From: Spirochaetia bacterium
GTDB lineage: Bacteria > Spirochaetota > Spirochaetia > CAKZLE01
Direction of reading: 5' to 3'
NCBI GenBank assembly: GCA_963677595.1
Contig: OY782041.1
Location: 256,001-320,000, forward strand
Length of the DNA: 64,000 nt
Shown here: one piece after another, positions 15,744-49,642 of the stretch
How positions within the stretch are numbered: the stretch's first letter is position 1
Layout of the letters: each line of letters begins with the position of its first letter
Translations under genes and position numbers: made by a program
Notes under the pieces: generated by a model
What the model was told of the DNA's origin: nothing
The model's input: the letters and a program-made list of their open reading frames with translations, nothing else
Databases searched by the model: none

Positions 15744-15772
15744 TTGTCTCCAAGCCCGCACTACGTTACAAT
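15744..15772 (+). promoter_or_regulatory. Sigma70 promoter upstream of the Moco-type riboswitch
   Basis: TTGTCT (15744-15749), 17 nt, TACAAT (15767-15772); AT-rich upstream region; start site would fall just before the RNA motif. Confidence 0.6.
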
Positions 15773-15781
15773 GAGTGCGTA

Positions 15782-15876
15782 CTTCCGAGTCAGCAAGTCC
15801 TACGGCCCCTGCTATGGACTGCGACCGTTAGAGGTCACCTGGGAAACTGGTGCCCTTCCCGTATTTGGAAAGGAAG
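15782..15876 (+). ncRNA. Molybdenum/tungsten cofactor (Moco/Wco) riboswitch-like RNA motif
   Basis: P1 CTTCC/GGAAG; TCCGAG start; P2 GTC-GCA-GTCC...GGAC-TGC-GAC containing CCTA.G and CTATGG; GAAA-tetraloop stem CACCtGG-GAAA-CTGGTG; terminal CCCTTCCCGTATTTGGAAAGGAAG overlapping the SD of the next gene. Confidence 0.82.
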
Positions 15877-15878
15877 CG

Positions 15879-17363
15879 ATGTTTGGTAGAAGAACTCTCT
15901 CTTGCGGTATCATGATCCTGTGCTGTGTGGTCTTCCCGCTGTCCGGTCTCGAAGTCAGCGTGAACGGAAAGCCATACCAGTCCTTGCATGATACTGAACT
16001 CACAGAACTCATCTCACCCCTCCCCGCCGGGCTGGTCTCTTCGGAGTCCTCTTTGGGTATTGCTGTGTCACAGCTCATCCCCGTGATGTTCGAGGCATGG
16101 CGGATCACCATTGACGGGGTTGTTATATCGGACGACAGCCTGGCAGAACGGCTTGAGCACTCCTACCTCTTCCGGGATGCCGGGGTATGGTCCATTCAGC
16201 TCGATGACGGTCTTATATTCCAGAACACTGAGAGCTTATCGGTCGAGGGGGAAGAACTCCTCGATGATGAGCTAGAGATATGGGTCAGCTGGGAGGGCGA
16301 GGATGAGCTGAGAACCGAGATCTCAGCCTTCGCGGACCGCAATGGTATCGAGGTCACGGTGCTCCATATCCCGAACCCGGAATCCCGCCTGGTCTCCGTT
16401 CTCAGGGGTGGGGGGAACCCTCCCGACCTTATCATGTGCTCTCCCGGGAATCTCTACAGCCTCGTCGAGTCAGGGGCCCTGCAGCCCCTTCCTGCATACC
16501 TCTCGACGGGCCTGGGCCGACAGGGGCTTGACACCTTCTCCTACCAGGGAAAGCAATGGGCCCTTCCGTTCTACTATGACACTCAGCTTCTGATCTACAA
16601 CCCGGAACTCATAGACCTGCCGGGAGGATCGAGTCTCACCCTTTCCGACCTGGAGCGGGCAGTCGCTGCGCTTGTCGGGACTGTCCCGGTCCCCATGAGC
16701 TGGAATGCCTACTCCTCCTATTGGCTGATGCCCTTCCAGGCAAGCTTCGGGAAGGCGCGCCTCACCGAACCGGACGGGTCGATCATCCTTGACGATGCCC
16801 AGACTGAGGCAGCCCTCTCCTACATCGTGAAGCTCGCGCAGCAGGAATACTTCACGCCGCTCGAGCGTGATGCCATGATCTCGTTCTTCGCCTCAGGCCG
16901 TGCCGGGGTGATCTACTCGGCTTCCTACTCGATCCCCTACTTCCAGGAACTTAGGATCCCGTTCGCCGTAGCCCCGGCACTGGTCAATGACCGGACAGGC
17001 TTGCCTGTCTCCCCCATGCTCGATTACAAGGCGATCGGCCTCACCCGGCAGTCAAAGCACCCGGTCCTCGCATACCGGCTGCTCTCCTACCTCATGGGAA
17101 TCGAGGTCCAGACCCGTTTCAACCAGCAGCTCTTCAAGCTCCCGGCCAACACCTATGCACAGCAGCTGCTTGAGGAGAGCACTGCCTACTACCGGACCAT
17201 AACCGACCAGGCTTCCCACGGCCAGACAGTACCGTCGACGGCATCCTATGCAGCCTACAAGAACATCATGTGGAAGCTGCTGAGGTTCGCCCTCTCCGGG
17301 CAGCTGAGCCCTTCCGCAGTCCTGGAACAGGGAGAGCGATTACTGAAGGAGACACTGCCGTAG
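15879..17363 (+). CDS. ABC solute-binding protein (family 1, MalE-like) with extra N-terminal domain
   Basis: Start corrected to ATG 15879 directly after the riboswitch; signal peptide; PPDLIM, GALQPL, WALPFYYDTQLLIYNPELI, FASGRAGVI; ~130 aa extra region before the SBP domain. Confidence 0.8.
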   Translation: MFGRRTLSCGIMILCCVVFPLSGLEVSVNGKPYQSLHDTELTELISPLPAGLVSSESSLGIAVSQLIPVMFEAWRITIDGVVISDDSLAERLEHSYLFRDAGVWSIQLDDGLIFQNTESLSVEGEELLDDELEIWVSWEGEDELRTEISAFADRNGIEVTVLHIPNPESRLVSVLRGGGNPPDLIMCSPGNLYSLVESGALQPLPAYLSTGLGRQGLDTFSYQGKQWALPFYYDTQLLIYNPELIDLPGGSSLTLSDLERAVAALVGTVPVPMSWNAYSSYWLMPFQASFGKARLTEPDGSIILDDAQTEAALSYIVKLAQQEYFTPLERDAMISFFASGRAGVIYSASYSIPYFQELRIPFAVAPALVNDRTGLPVSPMLDYKAIGLTRQSKHPVLAYRLLSYLMGIEVQTRFNQQLFKLPANTYAQQLLEESTAYYRTITDQASHGQTVPSTASYAAYKNIMWKLLRFALSGQLSPSAVLEQGERLLKETLP

Positions 17364-42464: not shown

Positions 42465-42544
42465 ATCTCCAGTACATTAAGATAATACAAATTATCGTAA
42501 TATTCTCCTTGTTGTGGGCACAGTATGGAAGTACATTTAAGAGT

Positions 42545-44380
42545 ATGAATACGATAACCTATACTAAACATAACACACTCCTCGGAGAATATCAGATAAA
42601 AAAACTCGAGGAGGAGCGCTCCTTCCTCGACCTGATCCACGATCACGGCATCGAGGGCTTCGATGCCCCCTGCGGGGGCAACGGTACCTGCGGGAAGTGT
42701 CGGATCACGATCGTCTCGGGGTCGGTCTCCCATGTGACCGAGAACGAGAAGAAACGCCTCAGCTCCAGGGAGCTGTCCGCCGGTATCCGCCTTGCCTGCA
42801 GCTGCTCGCCGAGGAGCGATGTGGTCATAGACTTATCGCACCACGACCTGGAATCTGCGGTCATCTCAGCTGCCAGCAGCGGGGGGCGGCAAGTCTCACG
42901 CATAAAGCCGAGAATCACCCGCAAGCCCCTGGACATGCTCCCCGACGGATCTCTCGAGGATCAGAGAGCCCTCCTGAGCAAAGCCATCGGGAACGCTTCG
43001 GCTTCCCTTTCCATGAAGGTGCCGTCTGCACTCCTTAGCTCCCTCCACTCCCATATCGGCACGGAAGCTGACCTGGTCCTCAAGGACGGCGTACCGAAGC
43101 GGATCGCACACCGCGGGGAGAAGCTCTACAGTATCGCTGTCGACATCGGGACTACCACCGTGGTCTGCTACCTCGTGGACCTGGAATTCGGGGAGGTCAT
43201 TGACAACTTCTCGGGCCTGAATGCACAGAAGAAGTTCGGTGCGGACGTCATCAGCCGGATCGCCTATGCCACCTCCTCTGTCGAACAGCAGGTACGCCTG
43301 CAGAGAGCCATCGTCTCCCAGATCGATTCAGGGATCAGGGCCCTTGCTGAACGCCATACTATCAGCCCGGAACAGATCATGCAGATCACGATAGCCGGGA
43401 ATACCACGATGATGCACCTGCTCGCAGGTGCCGACACCTCGGGGATCGCCGCATCTCCCTTCATACCGGTATTTACCGACTTCCTCACCGTCCCTGCGGT
43501 GGAGCTGGGTTTCACCTTCACACCGAACCTTGAGGTAGAGCTCCTTCCATCGGTAGCTGCCTATGTCGGGGCTGACATCACGGCAGGCATCCATGTCGCC
43601 GGGATCCATGTGGACAACACCCCCTCCATCCTCCTCGATATCGGGACGAACGGGGAGATGGCCTTCTCCATCTCTGATCATATCATCTGCTGCTCGACAG
43701 CAGCAGGCCCCGCATTCGAGGGGGCGAACATCACCTTCGGGACGGGAGGCGTGAGAGGGGCGATCGATACGGTGAAGCTCGATGACCATACGGTATCCTA
43801 TACCACCATCGGTGGTATTGACCCGATCGGCATCTGCGGTTCGGGGATCATCGACTGTGTCGCCGAGCTGATCAGGACAGGCCTCGTCGATTATACCGGG
43901 AGGCTGCTCACCCCGGAGGAGACTGACCATCCGGGCATCAAGTATTGTGACGGGGACCCGGTATTCTGCATCACGGCACTCGATGAGGAGTCCGCAGACC
44001 ATGCCGTCTACCTGACCCAGAAAGATATCAGGGAGGTACAGCTCGCGAAGGCGGCAATCGCTGCCGGGCTGCAGACCCTGCTTTCCGAGGCCGGGGTCGC
44101 AGAAGCTGACGTGGAACATCTCTACCTTGCCGGCGGGTTCGGGAGCTACATACGTCCCGAGAGTGCCGGGGAGATCGGGCTCATCCCGAAGCAGCTGGTA
44201 GCAAGGACGAAAGCCATCGGAAACAGTTCCGGTGAGGGAGCGGTCCGATTCAGTTGTTGGGAGGACCATGCCCATGATATACTGACGGTAGCACAGCATT
44301 GCCAGTATATCGAGTTATCAGGGCACAGGGAGTTCCAGGATTTCTATATCCAGGAGATGCTCTTCCCGATGGAGGACTAA
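42545..44380 (+). CDS. ATP-dependent reductive activator of corrinoid proteins (RACo-type, 2Fe-2S + ASKHA/DUF4445)
   Basis: CGGNGTCGKC..RLAC, VDIGTTT, GADVISRI, DIGTNGE, AAGPAFEG, GICGSG, LTQKDIREVQLAKAAI. Confidence 0.92.
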   Translation: MNTITYTKHNTLLGEYQIKKLEEERSFLDLIHDHGIEGFDAPCGGNGTCGKCRITIVSGSVSHVTENEKKRLSSRELSAGIRLACSCSPRSDVVIDLSHHDLESAVISAASSGGRQVSRIKPRITRKPLDMLPDGSLEDQRALLSKAIGNASASLSMKVPSALLSSLHSHIGTEADLVLKDGVPKRIAHRGEKLYSIAVDIGTTTVVCYLVDLEFGEVIDNFSGLNAQKKFGADVISRIAYATSSVEQQVRLQRAIVSQIDSGIRALAERHTISPEQIMQITIAGNTTMMHLLAGADTSGIAASPFIPVFTDFLTVPAVELGFTFTPNLEVELLPSVAAYVGADITAGIHVAGIHVDNTPSILLDIGTNGEMAFSISDHIICCSTAAGPAFEGANITFGTGGVRGAIDTVKLDDHTVSYTTIGGIDPIGICGSGIIDCVAELIRTGLVDYTGRLLTPEETDHPGIKYCDGDPVFCITALDEESADHAVYLTQKDIREVQLAKAAIAAGLQTLLSEAGVAEADVEHLYLAGGFGSYIRPESAGEIGLIPKQLVARTKAIGNSSGEGAVRFSCWEDHAHDILTVAQHCQYIELSGHREFQDFYIQEMLFPMED

Positions 44381-44381
44381 T

Positions 44382-45656
44382 TTGGCTTCACGTCAGCATA
44401 CCGTCAGCAGGGACGAAATATTCGCCAGGGCTGCGGAGATCGCGCATCACTACAGTCTCAGTACGGGGATCAAGGTGAGGATCCTCACCGACGATTCCAC
44501 TTCAGGTTCCTTCTGTGACGTCTGCCTCTCCGGCAAGGAGGATACCTGCCTCGAGGTCCACCGGTACAACGCGAAACAGGCGGAACGGTTCGGCGGGAGC
44601 TACATGTACTTCTGCCACTCCTCCATGCTCTACTGGACGAGCCCGGTCATCTTCGAAGGGGTCATGATCGGCTCCTTCACTGCCGGGCCTGCCACGATCA
44701 TCAGCCGGGATGAGATGATCCAGGACATCATCCCGGGAGGTTCGGAAGAAGAACGGTCCCATGCCCATGACCTGCTTGCCGAGGTCCCCTCGGTAACGCC
44801 TGAGCAGTCCAGGTCCTTGGCCGAGATGCTGCTCATGTGTGCCGGCTGGGTCAACAACAGCACCGACCACCAGATCATCGAGAGCAAGGAGTACCAGAAC
44901 CAGCAGGACAGGATCTCGGAGTACATCCACCAGCTGAAGCAGCATGAGTCGACTGAAGAGCTCTCCTACCCGATCGAGCTCGAGGACGAGCTCTACAGCG
45001 CGATATCACAGGGGAAGAAACAGCAGGCGCAGAAGACGCTCAACGAGATCCTCGGTAATGTCTTCTTCGCTTCCGGCAACAAGATGGAACTGATCTCCTT
45101 CCGGGTGACAGAACTCATCGTCCTGCTCTCCCGCGCGGCGATAGGGGGTGGTGCCGACCCTGAGGAGACGCTGAGCATGAACTTCACCTACCTCAGGCAG
45201 GTGACCCAGTTCAGGTCGATCGACAGCCTCGCCTACTGGCTCTCGAAGGTCCTCAATGACTACTCCTCGCTGGTCTTCGACCTCCAGGATACCAAGCATG
45301 TGGACAGGCTCGAGAGGACACTCCACTACATCCATACCCACTACACGGAGAAGGTCACCCTCGTGGAGGCGGCCAAGCGCGCCAACCTGAGCCTGACCTA
45401 CTTCAGCAAGGTCTTCAAGGAGGAGATGGGGCAGAGCTTCACCACCTATATCAACCAGATACGGGTGAACCATGCGAAGACGCTCCTGAAGACCACCCCG
45501 TGCACACTCATCGAGATCGCCGGGATGGTGGGCTTCGATGACCAGAGCTACTTTTCCCGGGTATTCAAGCAGGAGGTTGGGACCTCTCCGGGCAAGTACC
45601 GGTCAAAGAGCGTCAAATGGCTCAAGGACGCCCCGGAGATCCACAGCGAACCGTAG
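44382..45656 (+). CDS. AraC family activator with N-terminal PocR sensory domain
   Basis: FCDVC..C, YMYFCHSSML..SPV; C-terminal double HTH (YFSKVFKEEMG; GFDDQSYFSRVFK). Confidence 0.88.
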   Translation: MASRQHTVSRDEIFARAAEIAHHYSLSTGIKVRILTDDSTSGSFCDVCLSGKEDTCLEVHRYNAKQAERFGGSYMYFCHSSMLYWTSPVIFEGVMIGSFTAGPATIISRDEMIQDIIPGGSEEERSHAHDLLAEVPSVTPEQSRSLAEMLLMCAGWVNNSTDHQIIESKEYQNQQDRISEYIHQLKQHESTEELSYPIELEDELYSAISQGKKQQAQKTLNEILGNVFFASGNKMELISFRVTELIVLLSRAAIGGGADPEETLSMNFTYLRQVTQFRSIDSLAYWLSKVLNDYSSLVFDLQDTKHVDRLERTLHYIHTHYTEKVTLVEAAKRANLSLTYFSKVFKEEMGQSFTTYINQIRVNHAKTLLKTTPCTLIEIAGMVGFDDQSYFSRVFKQEVGTSPGKYRSKSVKWLKDAPEIHSEP

Positions 45657-45743
45657 GATCCATATCTTTGGATTGAGCTCCAAAGGATGAAATATCCTAA
45701 AATAGTCCAAAAAAAATAAAAATAATCAAAGATTTCTCCCATA

Positions 45744-45891
45744 TTTCAGCGTACTCTTGTCCTATACCAAGGGGAAAGAGGTGAGAATCCTCTGCGAGCC
45801 CGTCACTGTGAACATGGGGATGCATGCAATTCATCCAAGCCATGTAAGCCAGGTTACCTTGAGAAAACAGAGAAGCTTCGTGGATCAAGCT
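45744..45891 (+). ncRNA. Cobalamin riboswitch (short form) with kissing-loop hairpin
   Basis: AAGGGGAA, AGAGG-TGAGAAT-CCTCT T-loop stem, CACTGTGA, B12 box TAAGCCAGGTTACCT; downstream AGCTT-CGTGGATC-AAGCT hairpin whose TTCGTGGA can pair with TCTGCGAG. Confidence 0.82.
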
Positions 45892-45915
45892 GGAATACAT
45901 TAAGGAGTTAACGGT

Positions 45916-46554
45916 ATGGCAGTAGATTTGATGGCGCTTTCTGAATTCCTGCAGAAAGGTCGGGCAAAAGAGGTAACGGAACTGGTTCAGCAGGCACTTG
46001 ATGAAGGCATGAGCGCAAAGGAGATCCTTCATGACGGTCTCATGCACGGCATGAACATCATCGGTGAGAAGTTCAAGAACAATGAGGTCTTCGTCCCTGA
46101 GGTACTGATCGCCGCACGTGCGATGAACATGGGGACTGCGATCCTCAAGCCGTTCCTCGCTGATGCAGGGGTACAGGCAGCAGGCAAGGTCGTCATCGGC
46201 ACCGTCAAGGGCGACCTCCATGATATCGGGAAGAACCTGGTAGCCATGATGATGGAAGGGAAAGGCCTCGAGATCATCGACCTCGGCACAGACGTTCCCC
46301 CGCAGAAGTACGTGGACACCGCTATCGAGCAGGGTGCGAACATCATCGCTTGTTCAGCGCTCCTGACCACCACCATGACCCAGATGAAGGCTGTCGTCGC
46401 AGCTGCTGATGCTGCAGGGATCAGGGACAAGGTCAAGATCATGATCGGCGGCGCCCCGGTGACCGAGTCGTTCAAGGAGAGCGTCGGGGCTGACTTCTAC
46501 ACCGCTGACGCTGCTTCCGCAGCGAACGTTGCGGTAGAGATCTGCCAGGCGTAG
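45916..46554 (+). CDS. Methyltransferase corrinoid protein (MtaC/MttC-like)
   Basis: FVPEVLIAARAM cap domain; GTVKGDLHDIGKNLV (DxHxxG), SALLTTTM, MIGGAPV. Confidence 0.95.
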   Translation: MAVDLMALSEFLQKGRAKEVTELVQQALDEGMSAKEILHDGLMHGMNIIGEKFKNNEVFVPEVLIAARAMNMGTAILKPFLADAGVQAAGKVVIGTVKGDLHDIGKNLVAMMMEGKGLEIIDLGTDVPPQKYVDTAIEQGANIIACSALLTTTMTQMKAVVAAADAAGIRDKVKIMIGGAPVTESFKESVGADFYTADAASAANVAVEICQA

Positions 46555-46568
46555 ATACAACTAAAAAC

Positions 46569-46600
46569 CCGCAGCTGTGGCCGGTGAGGCCGCAGCTGTT
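46569..46600 (+). terminator. Intergenic stem-loop after the corrinoid gene (attenuator or mRNA stabiliser)
   Basis: GCAGCTGTGGCC-ggtga-GGCCGCAGCTGT followed by TTT. Confidence 0.55.
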
Positions 46601-46616
46601 TTCTTAGGAGAGAGGT

Positions 46617-47963
46617 ATGACAGGAAAAGAGCGTATTACTGCAGTGATGCAGGGGAAGGAGACCGACAAGACTCCCTGGGTCCCCTTCGCCGGTGTCCAT
46701 TCAGGGAAACTGAAGGGGTACACCGCACGAGAGGTCTCACAGGATGGGGACAAACTGTTCGAGTCACTGCTGGAGGTCAACAGACTCTACAAACCAGATG
46801 GACAGCCGGTGATGTTCGATCTTCAGATCGAAGCTGAACTCATGGGCTGTGACCTGGTCTGGGCAGAGGATGCCCCCCCGACCGTATCGACCCATCCGCT
46901 GGAATCGACGGCAGACATCCCGGACTACATCCCTGCAGCCGATGAGGGCCGGCTTGCCCTCGAGATCGATGTGATGAAGCGGATGAAAGAGGCAGTCGGT
47001 GATGAGACCGCCCTCTACGGCCTCTTCACCGGCCCGTTCACCCTTGCTTCCCACCTCCGGGGAACCAACATCTTCATGGACATGATGCTCGATCCCGACT
47101 ATGTCCACAAACTGCTTGCCTACTGCACCGATGTAGCCATCGCCCTGAGCGACTACTTCATCGAAGCCGGCATGGATGTGATCGCAGCGGTCGACCCGCT
47201 CATCTCACAGATCTCCCCTGCCCACTTCAAGGAGTTCATGCACGAGCCGTTCTCACGACTCTTCACCGCGATCAGGGAGAAGGGAGCCTACTCCTCGTTC
47301 TTCGTCTGCGGGAATGCTACCATGAACATCGGTCCCATGTGCGAGACGAAGCCTGACAGCCTATCAGTGGATGAGAACGTCAACCTGGCCGAGGCGAAGA
47401 AGGTCACCGACACCTACGGCGTCGTGATCGGCGGGAACATCCCGCTGACCTCCGTCATGCTCTTCGGGAACCAGCAGGACAACATGAAAGCTGTCGTGGA
47501 CCTGGTCGATTCCGTCACAAAGGAGCGACTGATCATTGCACCCGGCTGCGATATGCCGTATGATATCCCCGTAGAGAACACTATAGCGATCGAACAGGCT
47601 GTGCATGAGACCGAGTCAGTCCGCGAGATGATCAGGAACTATGAGGGTTCGGACCTGGTATTCGAGGGAGAACTCCCCGATTACGAGAACCTCGCAAGGC
47701 CCCTCGTGGAGGTCTTCACCCTCGACTCCGCGACCTGCGCTGCCTGCACCTACATGCTGGCTACTGCCATGGACGCGAAGGCCCATTACGGGGATGCGAT
47801 CGATGTGGTGGAATACAAATACACTACTCCCCAGAATATCGCGCGATGCGGGGCTATGGGAGTCAAGCAGCTGCCGAGTATCTATATCAACGGTGAGCTG
47901 AAGTACTCCTCGATCATCCCGAGCCGTGAGGAGATCCTGGGAGAGATCGGGAAGTACCTGTAA
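46617..47963 (+). CDS. UroD/MtaA-family methyltransferase fused to a C-terminal thioredoxin-like domain
   Basis: MTGKERI, EAELMGC, GPFTLASHLRG, GGNIP, APGCD; C-terminal ~90 aa with CAAC and GVKQLPSIYINGE. Confidence 0.85.
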   Translation: MTGKERITAVMQGKETDKTPWVPFAGVHSGKLKGYTAREVSQDGDKLFESLLEVNRLYKPDGQPVMFDLQIEAELMGCDLVWAEDAPPTVSTHPLESTADIPDYIPAADEGRLALEIDVMKRMKEAVGDETALYGLFTGPFTLASHLRGTNIFMDMMLDPDYVHKLLAYCTDVAIALSDYFIEAGMDVIAAVDPLISQISPAHFKEFMHEPFSRLFTAIREKGAYSSFFVCGNATMNIGPMCETKPDSLSVDENVNLAEAKKVTDTYGVVIGGNIPLTSVMLFGNQQDNMKAVVDLVDSVTKERLIIAPGCDMPYDIPVENTIAIEQAVHETESVREMIRNYEGSDLVFEGELPDYENLARPLVEVFTLDSATCAACTYMLATAMDAKAHYGDAIDVVEYKYTTPQNIARCGAMGVKQLPSIYINGELKYSSIIPSREEILGEIGKYL

Positions 47964-48952
47964 TGCAAGAGAACGAGCAGAAGATAACCGGCAAGATACC
48001 ACTGTACATCATCATCGGGTTCCTTGGATCCGGGAAGACCTCCATGCTGAACAATCTGCTCGAACAGCACGGATGGGATAATGTGGGGGTCATCGTCAAT
48101 GAGTTCGGCTCATTGGACATCGACTCCTCACTAATCACATCCGACTCTGATATCATCAAGACGGAACTCTCCGGGGGGCAGATCTTCTGTTCCTGCCTCT
48201 CCGGCAGTTTCGTTGAGACTATCGGTAAGTATGCCGACCTGCCAATTCAGGCACTCTTCGTCGAGGCCTCAGGCCTCGCGAAGCCAAACCCCCTGCTCGA
48301 GATCATGGAATGGGCTGAACGCACCTCCAACCATGCATTCGAGTACCAAGGCATGATCTGCATCATCGATGCAGAACGCTACCACGCACTCTCACAGGCC
48401 CTGATGACCCTCAAGGAGCAGATCGTCTACAGCGATCTCTTCATCATCAACAAGTGCGACCTTGTCTCGGAAGAGGAGCTCTCTTCCCTTGAGCAGGAGC
48501 TCAATGCCATGAAACCCGAGGTCGACATCGTGAAGACCACCTATGGGAAGGTACCGGCAGAGCTGGTGAAGCACCTGAAGCATAATGCGGATGTGCTGCA
48601 TACCTATGATCAGGAACTCTACAAAGGCTGGGGAAAGCAGGGACGACCGGTGCCGCTGAGGCTCACCCCGGAGAGACCGGTAGCCTTCGATGCCCTTGAT
48701 GCCTTCATGAAGACCTACGGGTCAGAGGCGTTTCGGATGAAGGGGTATCTTGAGACCGAGGAACACGGCCTCATCCTTGCGAACGGGGTCGGCACCCACA
48801 TCGAGTATGACCTGGACCTGCCGCATGATGTACGCAAGACCCTGCAGCCGGGGCTGGTGGTCATCGTACCCGGCAACAGCATGCTGAAAGTCTCACTCGG
48901 TACCCACTGGAGGACACAGACGGGTGTGGATGTGGCTGTCCATACAGGCTGA
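47963..48952 (+). CDS. CobW/COG0523 metallochaperone GTPase
   Basis: GFLGSGKT, IVNEFG, IFCSC, VEASGLA, INKCD, RMKG. Confidence 0.88.
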   Translation: MQENEQKITGKIPLYIIIGFLGSGKTSMLNNLLEQHGWDNVGVIVNEFGSLDIDSSLITSDSDIIKTELSGGQIFCSCLSGSFVETIGKYADLPIQALFVEASGLAKPNPLLEIMEWAERTSNHAFEYQGMICIIDAERYHALSQALMTLKEQIVYSDLFIINKCDLVSEEELSSLEQELNAMKPEVDIVKTTYGKVPAELVKHLKHNADVLHTYDQELYKGWGKQGRPVPLRLTPERPVAFDALDAFMKTYGSEAFRMKGYLETEEHGLILANGVGTHIEYDLDLPHDVRKTLQPGLVVIVPGNSMLKVSLGTHWRTQTGVDVAVHTG

Positions 48953-48958
48953 CCTGTC

Positions 48959-49642
48959 ATGAAGAAATCATTGATCCACCTGAGGACGAGCTTCGACGCC
49001 TCTTTCGACTGGTTCGCGAAGCAGATACGCCTCGAGCAGTTCCCTGAGTTGACCTCTGAGGCCGAAGACCTGTACGACAAGGCCTCACGGCTGCTGATCC
49101 CGCAATCGGTCCACCTGCAGGCTGACGTTGACTCGTTCGCTGCCGAACAGGACGGTACGTTCACCGTCGTGATCGAGGGTACCCAGTTCAACGGGAAAGT
49201 GCTTGACCGCCTTGACGGGGTACATAGGGTCTTCCCCTATGTCGTCACCTGCGGAACGGGCCTCGAGGACCTCGACCTCTCCACCTATGACTTCTTCGCC
49301 CCCTACTGGGTCGATGCCCTGAAGGTAAAGGCACTGAGGATCGGGATGAGACAGATAAACTCCTATATGCGGGAGACCTACCACCTCAGCAGGGTTAACA
49401 CCCTCAACCCGGGATCCGGCAATGTCGATATCTGGCCGATCGAGCAGCTGCGTGATGTGTTCAGCATCCTTGGTAATGTAGCTGGGGAGACCGGGGTCAC
49501 GATGACCGAGAGCTGCCTCATGATCCCGAACAAGACACTCGCAGGCTTCTTCTTCGACCGGGACCATCTCTATGAGAGCTGTGCCTACTGTGAGCGGGCG
49601 AACTGCCCGGACCGGAGGGTCCCCTACTCGGAGACCCTGTAA
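48959..49642 (+). CDS. Stand-alone B12-dependent methionine synthase activation-domain-like protein
   Basis: FPYVVTCG, NPGSG..WPIEQ, ESCLMIPNKT, C-terminal CAYCERANCPDRR. Confidence 0.75.
   Translation: MKKSLIHLRTSFDASFDWFAKQIRLEQFPELTSEAEDLYDKASRLLIPQSVHLQADVDSFAAEQDGTFTVVIEGTQFNGKVLDRLDGVHRVFPYVVTCGTGLEDLDLSTYDFFAPYWVDALKVKALRIGMRQINSYMRETYHLSRVNTLNPGSGNVDIWPIEQLRDVFSILGNVAGETGVTMTESCLMIPNKTLAGFFFDRDHLYESCAYCERANCPDRRVPYSETL

Follow-up and report, generated by a model that had tools for sequence, protein, structure and literature searches.

A P2-less cobalamin riboswitch before a spirochaetal corrinoid-protein gene, predicted to switch translation on

Does a cobalamin riboswitch that stands before the gene of a cobalamin-using protein switch this gene off or on? 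The question is raised by a stretch of 64,000 nucleotides (nt) from a Spirochaetia bacterium (contig OY782041.1, positions 256,001 to 320,000), which is called the window below and in which positions are counted from the first letter. A first-pass annotation, made from the sequence alone, had seen a cobalamin aptamer between the genes of a PocR-AraC regulator and a corrinoid protein, and had suggested that ligand binding frees the Shine-Dalgarno (SD) sequence, so that expression would need both the PocR ligand and B12. As judged from sequence and conserved pairing, the element is a P2-less riboswitch of the cobalamin family. Comparative folding suggests, with a probability of about 0.6, that it is a translational ON switch for the corrinoid carrier, acting through a hairpin over the start codon. 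The ON sign as such, with start-codon and other ON routes taken together, is considered likely.

A P2-less aptamer before the corrinoid-protein gene

The features of the leader and the regulated gene are as follows.

45694..45734, + strand: conserved A-rich tandem repeat with a period of about 20, ending at the -35 position (from the consensus and a lag-20 peak)
45752..45757, + strand: predicted -10 box TACTCT (comparative motif), overlapping ACTCTT
45768..45861, + strand: cobalamin aptamer without P2
45768-72/45857-61, + strand: P3, 5 base pairs
45777-81/45789-93, + strand: P4
45796-97/45803-04, + strand: P5
45798-45802, + strand: L5
45806-08/45850-52, + strand: P6, with a short P6 hairpin at 45812-45845 (34 nt)
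45853-56, + strand: J6/3, sequence GUUA
45874..45891, + strand: P13 hairpin, whose loop 45879-45886 kisses L5 (4 pairs, 1 bulge)
45868..45943, + strand: predicted ligand-free hairpin, 45868-45903 pairing with 45908-45943 (helix probabilities 0.67-0.98)
45902-45907, + strand: SD sequence AAGGAG, followed by the ATG at 45916
45916..46554, + strand: standalone methyltransferase corrinoid protein of 212 amino acids, the regulated gene (Pfam B12-binding, B12-binding_2)

The Rfam covariance model RF00174 (Cobalamin) matched 45728-45879 with 41.3 bits against a gathering cut-off of 31.5 (E 5e-7), and the family membership proposed earlier is thereby confirmed. It was the sole riboswitch family with a match in 45600-46000 at E<=5, one lower-scoring match of the same clan having been suppressed. 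The match lies on the + strand only, the same strand as pocR; the - strand gave none. The true aptamer start is at about 45768, with about 4 nt 5′ of P3 and no P2. Thus, of the range 45744-45891 assigned in the first pass, the aptamer itself and the P13 end at 45891 are right, while the start is too far upstream. The SD sequence lies 10 nt 3′ of P13, hence outside the kissing-loop hairpin, and no terminator-like site was found between the aptamer and the start codon, the sole one in 44000-47000 being at 46571-46599; both points agree with the earlier description.

Is this element common? It was found before the same corrinoid-protein gene at 43 distinct loci, of which the named ones are spirochaetal. 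Forty distinct leaders were analysed after removing duplicates, truncated copies and chance matches, and three later loci (L196-L198) were added separately. In five of five other genomes of the family, the orthologous gene is preceded by the element. By pattern search, the element turned up in metagenome contigs, in 11 members of a 401-genome sample of the phylum and in 26 of 258 genomes from one family that groups with contigs titled Sphaerochaeta. The search pattern itself prescribes the L5 region, which accounts in part for the invariance of L5 among these loci. When 78 corrinoid-gene loci were scanned with a profile of the element, seven had it upstream of the gene, and each of these is spirochaetal; the remaining 71, mostly from Bacillota, gave no match. 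The riboswitch layer appears to be specific to spirochaetes in this sample. Excluded from the set were 13 pattern matches without other riboswitch motifs (one of which, L119, is a truncated true member), L125 (a truncated duplicate of L104), exact duplicates and, as targets, 11 riboswitches before other genes, some of which were reused as controls. The own genome holds one more pattern match (L102), which lacks the other riboswitch motifs and was likewise set aside as a chance match. Two loci, L121 and L131, are absent from the tree and were unparsed in the whole-leader computation.

In an alignment of 38 sequences, the aptamer, P13 and the kissing loop are paired in 93.8% of cells (P3 96%, P4 85%, P5 and P6 100%), a value reached by 0 of 500 shuffles; slid controls were 24-56% paired. 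Eight pairs change on both sides. The L5-L13 kiss forms four pairs in 98% of cells, and these pairs never covary. P2 was present in none of the aligned members. The P6 element is short, like that of the window, in 9 of the 40 leaders and carries a long extension in the remaining 31. The SD sequence is 3′ of P13 in all target leaders, and a terminator is evident in none of the 40. Members with the long form score 70-90 bits and are likely to have been marked as cobalamin riboswitches already by automatic annotation.

The short form in this lineage might bind its ligand weakly or no longer regulate, PocR alone setting expression. The window scores 41 bits, while three further canonical cobalamin matches in the same genome score 93-113 bits, and four of the five family relatives fall under the gathering cut-off. 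The form of the window has neither P2 nor the long P6 extension, its first J6/3 adenosine is missing, and several short-form loci are neutral in folding. However, all six family members retain P3, P4, P5, L5, the P6 core, P13 and the kissing pairs, as do other short-form lineages, while the linkers drift. The low score can be traced to the missing P2 and P6 extension, which class II switches lack as well (PMC7367189), and to the P1/P2 columns of the Rfam model, which are forced onto promoter DNA. Weak binding or a loss of regulation in the short form is regarded as quite improbable.

The predicted direction of the switch

In the predicted ligand-free fold of the window, P13 is melted, the AUG and codons 2-10 are buried, and GGAG lies in a 4-nt loop; in the start codon, A and U have unpaired probabilities of 0.01-0.04. 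The cost of forming P13 is 10.6 kcal/mol. Synonymous recodings give 3.7 +/- 2.8, and 12 of 500 equal or exceed the value of the window, as does 1 of 200 foreign gene starts; when 60 nt of the gene are included, the cost is 6.5 kcal/mol, and 25 of 200 foreign starts reach it. The long-form leaders whose folds were inspected form similar structures. Mutual exclusivity of P13 and the repressive hairpin is predicted in the window and in most long-form loci, and is weak in several short-form loci. In a longer free fold, L5 (45798-45802) pairs with 45961-45965, in codons 16-17, with a probability of 0.87; as modelled, this pairing could be a second block on the kissing loop by the coding region.

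Is the pairing between leader and gene kept during evolution? Double-centred duplex energies of segments from the own locus and from other loci were compared for 15 segment pairs. For the 5′ strand and loop of P13 against codons 3-9, the own pairing reached -10.0 kcal/mol and the cross pairing -8.3 in 24 long-form loci (p<1e-4); the effect was also found in 31 mixed loci (p<1e-4) and in 18 loci after stricter thinning (p=0.0008). Codons 11-20 and 21-30 gave no such effect in any of these three sets. At the level of single bases, 16 of 27 haplotypes, against 11.0 expected (p=0.009), pair the base directly 5′ of P13 with the wobble base of a conserved Ala codon, and the pair types U-A, U-G, C-G and A-U occur on separate branches.

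The sign was then computed as the ease of opening the ribosome site when the bound fold is forced, a positive value meaning ON. Other cobalamin switches from the same searches, unannotated and mostly located before signal-peptide-like gene starts, served as controls. In the platform-only run, from the SD sequence to AUG+6, 31 of 40 targets were above +0.5 and 5 below -0.5 (median +2.7), while 4 of 16 controls were above +0.5 and 10 below -0.5 (median -2.1), three controls having been set to OFF because their SD sequence overlaps P13. Targets and controls differ at p<=4e-4 in all five window settings, also after thinning to 28 and 14, although the p-values overstate the difference, since related loci count as independent in them even in the thinned sets. 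In the whole-leader computation, 29 of 38 targets open and 3 are negative, while 13 of 17 controls close. For the six members of the family the values are +5.3 (the window), +4.1, +0.1, +3.3, +2.1 and +6.5. Compared with foreign gene starts, the own coding start scored better in 31 of 40 targets and in 3 of 13 controls. Under the strict rule, 8 of 10 extra controls were unparsed. A looser parser scored 24 of 40 controls, of which 15 were below -0.5 and 2 above +0.5; 10 were unparsed, and 6 were called as having the SD sequence inside P13, three of these by a wrong start. The controls of the platform-only run also bear on the first-pass argument from an SD sequence outside P13 and the lack of a terminator, which do not point to an ON switch by themselves: 13 of these 16 controls likewise have the SD sequence outside the P13 as called, and 7 of the 13 scored OFF in the first setting.

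From these results a mechanism can be proposed. In the presence of its inducer, the PocR-AraC protein would bind 45694-45734 and start transcription near 45764. Without corrinoid, as folding and covariation suggest, the weak 5-base-pair P13 would open, and its sequence would close the ribosome site by pairing with the AUG and codons 2-10; in some close relatives, the SD sequence would pair with the 3′ strand of P3 instead. By homology with solved and mutated cobalamin switches, a corrinoid would lock the L5-L13 kiss and stabilise P3-P6 and P13. This would release the start codon, and the carrier would be made only when inducer and cofactor are present together. Given the likely PocR site at -35, such an AND gate of PocR input and corrinoid is plausible, and comparative evidence supports the two-input logic as a prediction.

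Several results speak against the start-codon hairpin as the switching device, or limit its support. The sign evidence is all computed, with ViennaRNA, which has no term for the ligand or the kissing loop; the null of the measure is nonzero (synonymous recodings have a median of +1.5), and the OFF sign of the controls is presumed. In the platform-only run 10 of 26 controls were unparsed, and at least L170 and L173 have a mis-called P13. The pairing hypothesis was formed after viewing the folds and concerns 1 of 15 segment pairs tested. In nine short-form loci the codons 11-20, meant as a control, also scored (p=0.0006). Covariation of bases was found at one of four positions, and the three neighbouring positions had no effect in the full set. 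The nearest relatives (L006-L010) and L015 gave -0.5 to -2.9 in the first setting of the platform-only run and failed to beat foreign starts in 5 of 6 cases; they turned positive only when 60 nt of the gene or the aptamer was included. The later loci L196-L198 gave -0.3, -3.1 and -1.4 in the platform-only run and mixed values with the whole leader (+2.4, +0.3 and -0.6). For the SD hexamer alone, 15 of 40 targets went up and 9 down, with a median of +0.1 kcal/mol. Opening of the SD sequence alone was rejected as the switch since the value is near zero; of the earlier idea that the ligand frees the SD sequence, the ON sign survives as a prediction of comparative folding, and the SD core as the switching part does not. 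Finally, ligand binding may not repay the modelled P13 cost of 6.5-10.6 kcal/mol once the coding part is made, in which case switching would need to be co-transcriptional.

The weakness of the window's close relatives in this test bears on another set of ON routes, in which the 3′ strand of P3 or of L4/P4 acts as the anti-SD, or the mRNA is shielded from decay by the folded aptamer at its 5′ end. In the free folds of L006, L007 and L010, the SD sequence pairs with the P3 3′ strand with probabilities of 0.33-0.99 at +30, and in the nascent RNA of the window with 0.41 at +15. The own-versus-cross comparison gave p=0.012 for this pair in nine short-form loci and p=0.01-0.03 for the P4 3′ strand with the SD sequence in the larger sets, and the aptamer begins about 5 nt or less from the predicted start site, which fits protection of the mRNA. 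However, both anti-SD signals are lost after correction for 15 tests, the P3 signal is absent from long-form loci (p about 0.5), and in the window the hairpin of P13 with the coding sequence is dominant once 30 nt of the gene are made. The P4 3′ strand as a general anti-SD looked strong by eye, gave nothing in the short forms, and was set aside as a minor rival. Together these other routes are improbable; the competing strand may nevertheless differ between lineages.

Could the element be an ordinary OFF switch that depends on Rho, on access for RNase or on an SD hairpin formed locally once P13 is locked? The base rate favours this, since all tested corrinoid switches but one repress (PMC10653944); the first-pass annotation was right that activating ones are rare. 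In the bound fold, small hairpins form locally over the SD sequence of several homologs, 9 of 40 leaders are negative on the SD sequence alone, and control by Rho or RNase is invisible to folding. Against it stand the lack of a terminator between aptamer and start codon and the counts given above, where controls scored OFF in 10/16 and 13/17 and targets in only 5/40 and 3/38. Repressing a cofactor carrier when the cofactor is abundant would also have no clear benefit. An OFF switch is therefore judged unlikely, and translational ON control through the start-codon hairpin is preferred.

Predicted promoter, putative operator and gene setting

Of the 40 leaders, 32 have the motif NAGA[AT]N-17-TANNNT in the 90 nt before J3/4, whereas base-shuffled leaders gave a mean of 1.7 and a maximum of 6 in 1000 shuffles, and spacings of 13-16 and 18-21 gave 0-2 leaders each. 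The motif was first noticed in six family sequences, so the independent count is 26 of 34; the three later loci have a one-letter variant. Transcription is predicted to start near 45764, within about 5 nt of the aptamer. A consensus sigma-70 scan of 44000-47000 returned 0 promoters, and the promoter is predicted from the comparison.

This promoter bears on the proposal that ACTCTT (45753-45758) sequesters the SD sequence until the ligand binds. ACTCTT can pair with AGGAGT at -4.4 kcal/mol, and read-through RNA from the activase and pocR genes would include it. However, it is not in the 5′ region of the aptamer as had been stated, but outside the aptamer and overlapping the predicted -10 box 45752-45757, and is probably not transcribed from the predicted promoter. 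The hexamer is not conserved in the relatives, and the probability of its pairing with the SD sequence is about 0.05 in folded read-through RNA. A role as anti-SD is very hard to credit.

AraC-type activators bind a tandem site that overlaps the -35 position. The repeat at 45694-45734 has this form and is likely, from its sequence and position, to be the PocR operator; the PocR-AraC protein is likely the activator of the promoter 3′ of its gene. A matrix trained on 25 sites from outside the family scored the site of the window at 27.8 bits and recognised one in each of the six family leaders, in every case with 0 of 100 resamples as high. With the full matrix, 26 of 69 riboswitch-less loci (among L013-L090) have a site above all 30 resamples, a count that A-rich promoter DNA may inflate; these are mostly from Bacillota, often with a divergent pocR. 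At 27 of the 40 loci, pocR immediately precedes the element on the same strand, and in at least L078 it is downstream; at some of the 40 its position is outside the DNA covered. In a scan of the own genome, where the site of the window scores 36 bits but is part of the training set, the next-best matches (C1:1913887, 3255338, 426766 and 1534944) score 10-15 bits. They lie beside other URO-D gene clusters and about 9 kb from a second corrinoid gene, and one is just upstream of the riboswitch of cobalamin synthesis genes. By their sequence, they are a possible PocR regulon.

The neighbouring genes are as follows.

42509..44380, + strand: RACo/RamA-like corrinoid reductive activase, 2Fe-2S plus ASKHA (Pfam RACo_C_ter, Raco_middle, Fer2)
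44382..45656, + strand: AraC-family regulator with a PocR sensory domain (Pfam PocR E 2e-14, HTH_18 E 2e-24)
46617..47963, + strand: MtaA/CmuA-like UroD-fold methyltransferase with a C-terminal thioredoxin-like domain (family searches)
47963..48952, + strand: CobW-family GTPase (family searches)
48959..49642, + strand: protein like the B12 activation domain of methionine synthase (ESM Atlas features 0.97)

The Pfam domains bear out the regulator and corrinoid-protein genes on either side of the riboswitch as first described. The activase gene is 5′ of the riboswitch and hence outside its control. For the corrinoid protein, the closest NCBIfam models are MtgC/MtbC, with every score under the cut-off. 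The last protein had no match in a Pfam search, and PF02965 is found on 57-77% of members in its two top ESM Atlas clusters. The His-Cys-Cys zinc site of such methyltransferases has an H-x-C spacing. The MtaA-like protein has Cys231 and Cys311, with a Phe two residues before Cys231, as read directly from its sequence. A strong hairpin with a U run at 46571-46599 (+) lies between the corrinoid-protein and methyltransferase genes, and it could leave the carrier mRNA in excess over the downstream genes. Elsewhere in the window, a molybdenum/tungsten cofactor riboswitch is found at 15771-15891 (+) with 53.7 bits.

The own genome has matches to CbiC and CobS, and 23 genes of the URO-D family stand against only two standalone corrinoid proteins. 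The second standalone corrinoid gene (start C1:418213, - strand) gave no riboswitch match in the own-genome scan. The regulated protein may be a shared methyl carrier, and in such a role, matching the amount of carrier to the cofactor supply would be useful.

Some loci outside the target set, or at its edge, are of interest in their own right. At L091 and L092 (pattern at 1501), cobalamin aptamers without P2 carry the L5 of the target set and lie about 240 nt before a gene with a start like that of ethanolamine ammonia-lyase EutB; an apparent separate promoter lies between aptamer and gene, and the aptamer could control a small RNA. L094-L096 have the same L5 region with an SD sequence that overlaps the 3′ strand of P13, and are apparent OFF counterparts. 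L165 has a second P4/L4-like hairpin about 40 nt upstream of the aptamer, at the expected position of the promoter motif, which is possibly a remnant of a tandem aptamer. The corrinoid gene of L107 is in frame for only 21 codons, by a frameshift or an assembly error.

Relation to known switches and meaning

The element shares with RF00174 (clan CL00101) the four-way P3-P6 core, a 7-nt L4, the L5 CCCG and a bulged L5-L13 kiss with P13, the bulge following the rule described for this kissing loop (PMC5028336). In contrast to RF00174, P2 is found in no member, the aptamer directly follows the -10 box and precedes a cofactor-using gene, and the predicted sign is activating. The cobT switch of Alkalihalobacillus halodurans is the first activating corrinoid riboswitch described; there, P13 excludes a terminator (PMC10653944). 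It likewise has a GCCCG L5 and a bulged kissing loop, and its P13 is mutually exclusive with a repressive structure, as is predicted for the window. However, the cobT switch is transcriptional, stands before a biosynthesis gene and prefers cobinamide (PMC10653944). Here no terminator overlaps P13, and the predicted competitor is a start-codon hairpin that uses coding sequence.

Which class does it resemble, and which ligand might it bind? Like the class II switches Cbl-IIa (env8) and Cbl-IIb, the window lacks P2 and has a short P6 hairpin, while the 31 long-form relatives have the long P6 extension of class I without P2 and are outside both classes as described (PMC7367189, PMC6158498, PMC5028336). 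Compared with Cbl-I, the window lacks the P2 arm and the long P7-P11 extension and has GUUA in place of adenosines in J6/3. Unlike in Cbl-IIa, the J1/3 loop is absent, and the ribosome-binding site is not in L13 as in env8. Because the J1/3 loop is absent, the form of the window resembles Cbl-IIb more than Cbl-IIa; the short, paired or mismatched J1/3 and the short P6 hairpin given for Cbl-IIb, which binds adenosylcobalamin (PMC7367189), fit the window in a comparison made by description only. The second J6/3 base is U in 12 of 12 short forms (9 plus the 3 later ones) and A in 31 of 31 long forms. Since the adenosyl pocket of class I includes two J6/3 adenosines (PMC7367189), a shift of the short form toward methyl- or hydroxocobalamin is possible by analogy, the correspondence of the J6/3 residues being itself presumed.

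In Listeria monocytogenes a B12 riboswitch also lies just 3′ of pocR, and PocR-controlled B12-dependent enzymes are made only with B12, but this OFF switch is on the opposite strand and ends an antisense RNA (PMC9943018), while the present switch is sense to its target and part of the target's own leader. A Listeria-type antisense arrangement was rejected here, as the - strand had no match. A corrinoid protein, a Ram/RACE activase and a UroD-fold MtaA-like methyltransferase also occur together in the type 1 mlp clusters (PMC10418091); those encode at least Mlp2 and Mlp3, and here the cluster has only one URO-D gene. The accessible parts of PMC10418091 and its 3 supplements mention neither a riboswitch nor PocR. 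Another repressing switch is described in 10.1101/2024.07.19.603033, and further literature behind this comparison is PMC9600662, PMC10907184 and PMC9481103. The literature searched, most subscription papers being outside its scope, contained no description of this element and no natural cobalamin switch that turns translation on; the single natural activating corrinoid riboswitch described there is transcriptional.

The most complete picture joins all parts: a translational ON family of cobalamin switches in several spirochaete lineages, whose P13 is held open by the first codons of the gene it controls; a substrate-AND-cofactor gate with PocR-AraC for a carrier that possibly serves many of the 23 UroD-fold genes; and a short form that lost the P6 extension and the J6/3 adenosine together, possibly shifting from adenosyl- to methyl- or hydroxocobalamin. 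As a whole this remains tentative, somewhat short of an even chance. If true, coding sequence would act as a switching strand, and corrinoid biosensors would gain a compact natural ON part of about 180 nt. Adenosyl versus methyl selectivity could be studied without P2 in the pair of long and short forms, which differ by a matched change in J6/3. For the spirochaetes, a translational ON family of 43 loci would mean that B12 switches also license the proteins that use the cofactor.

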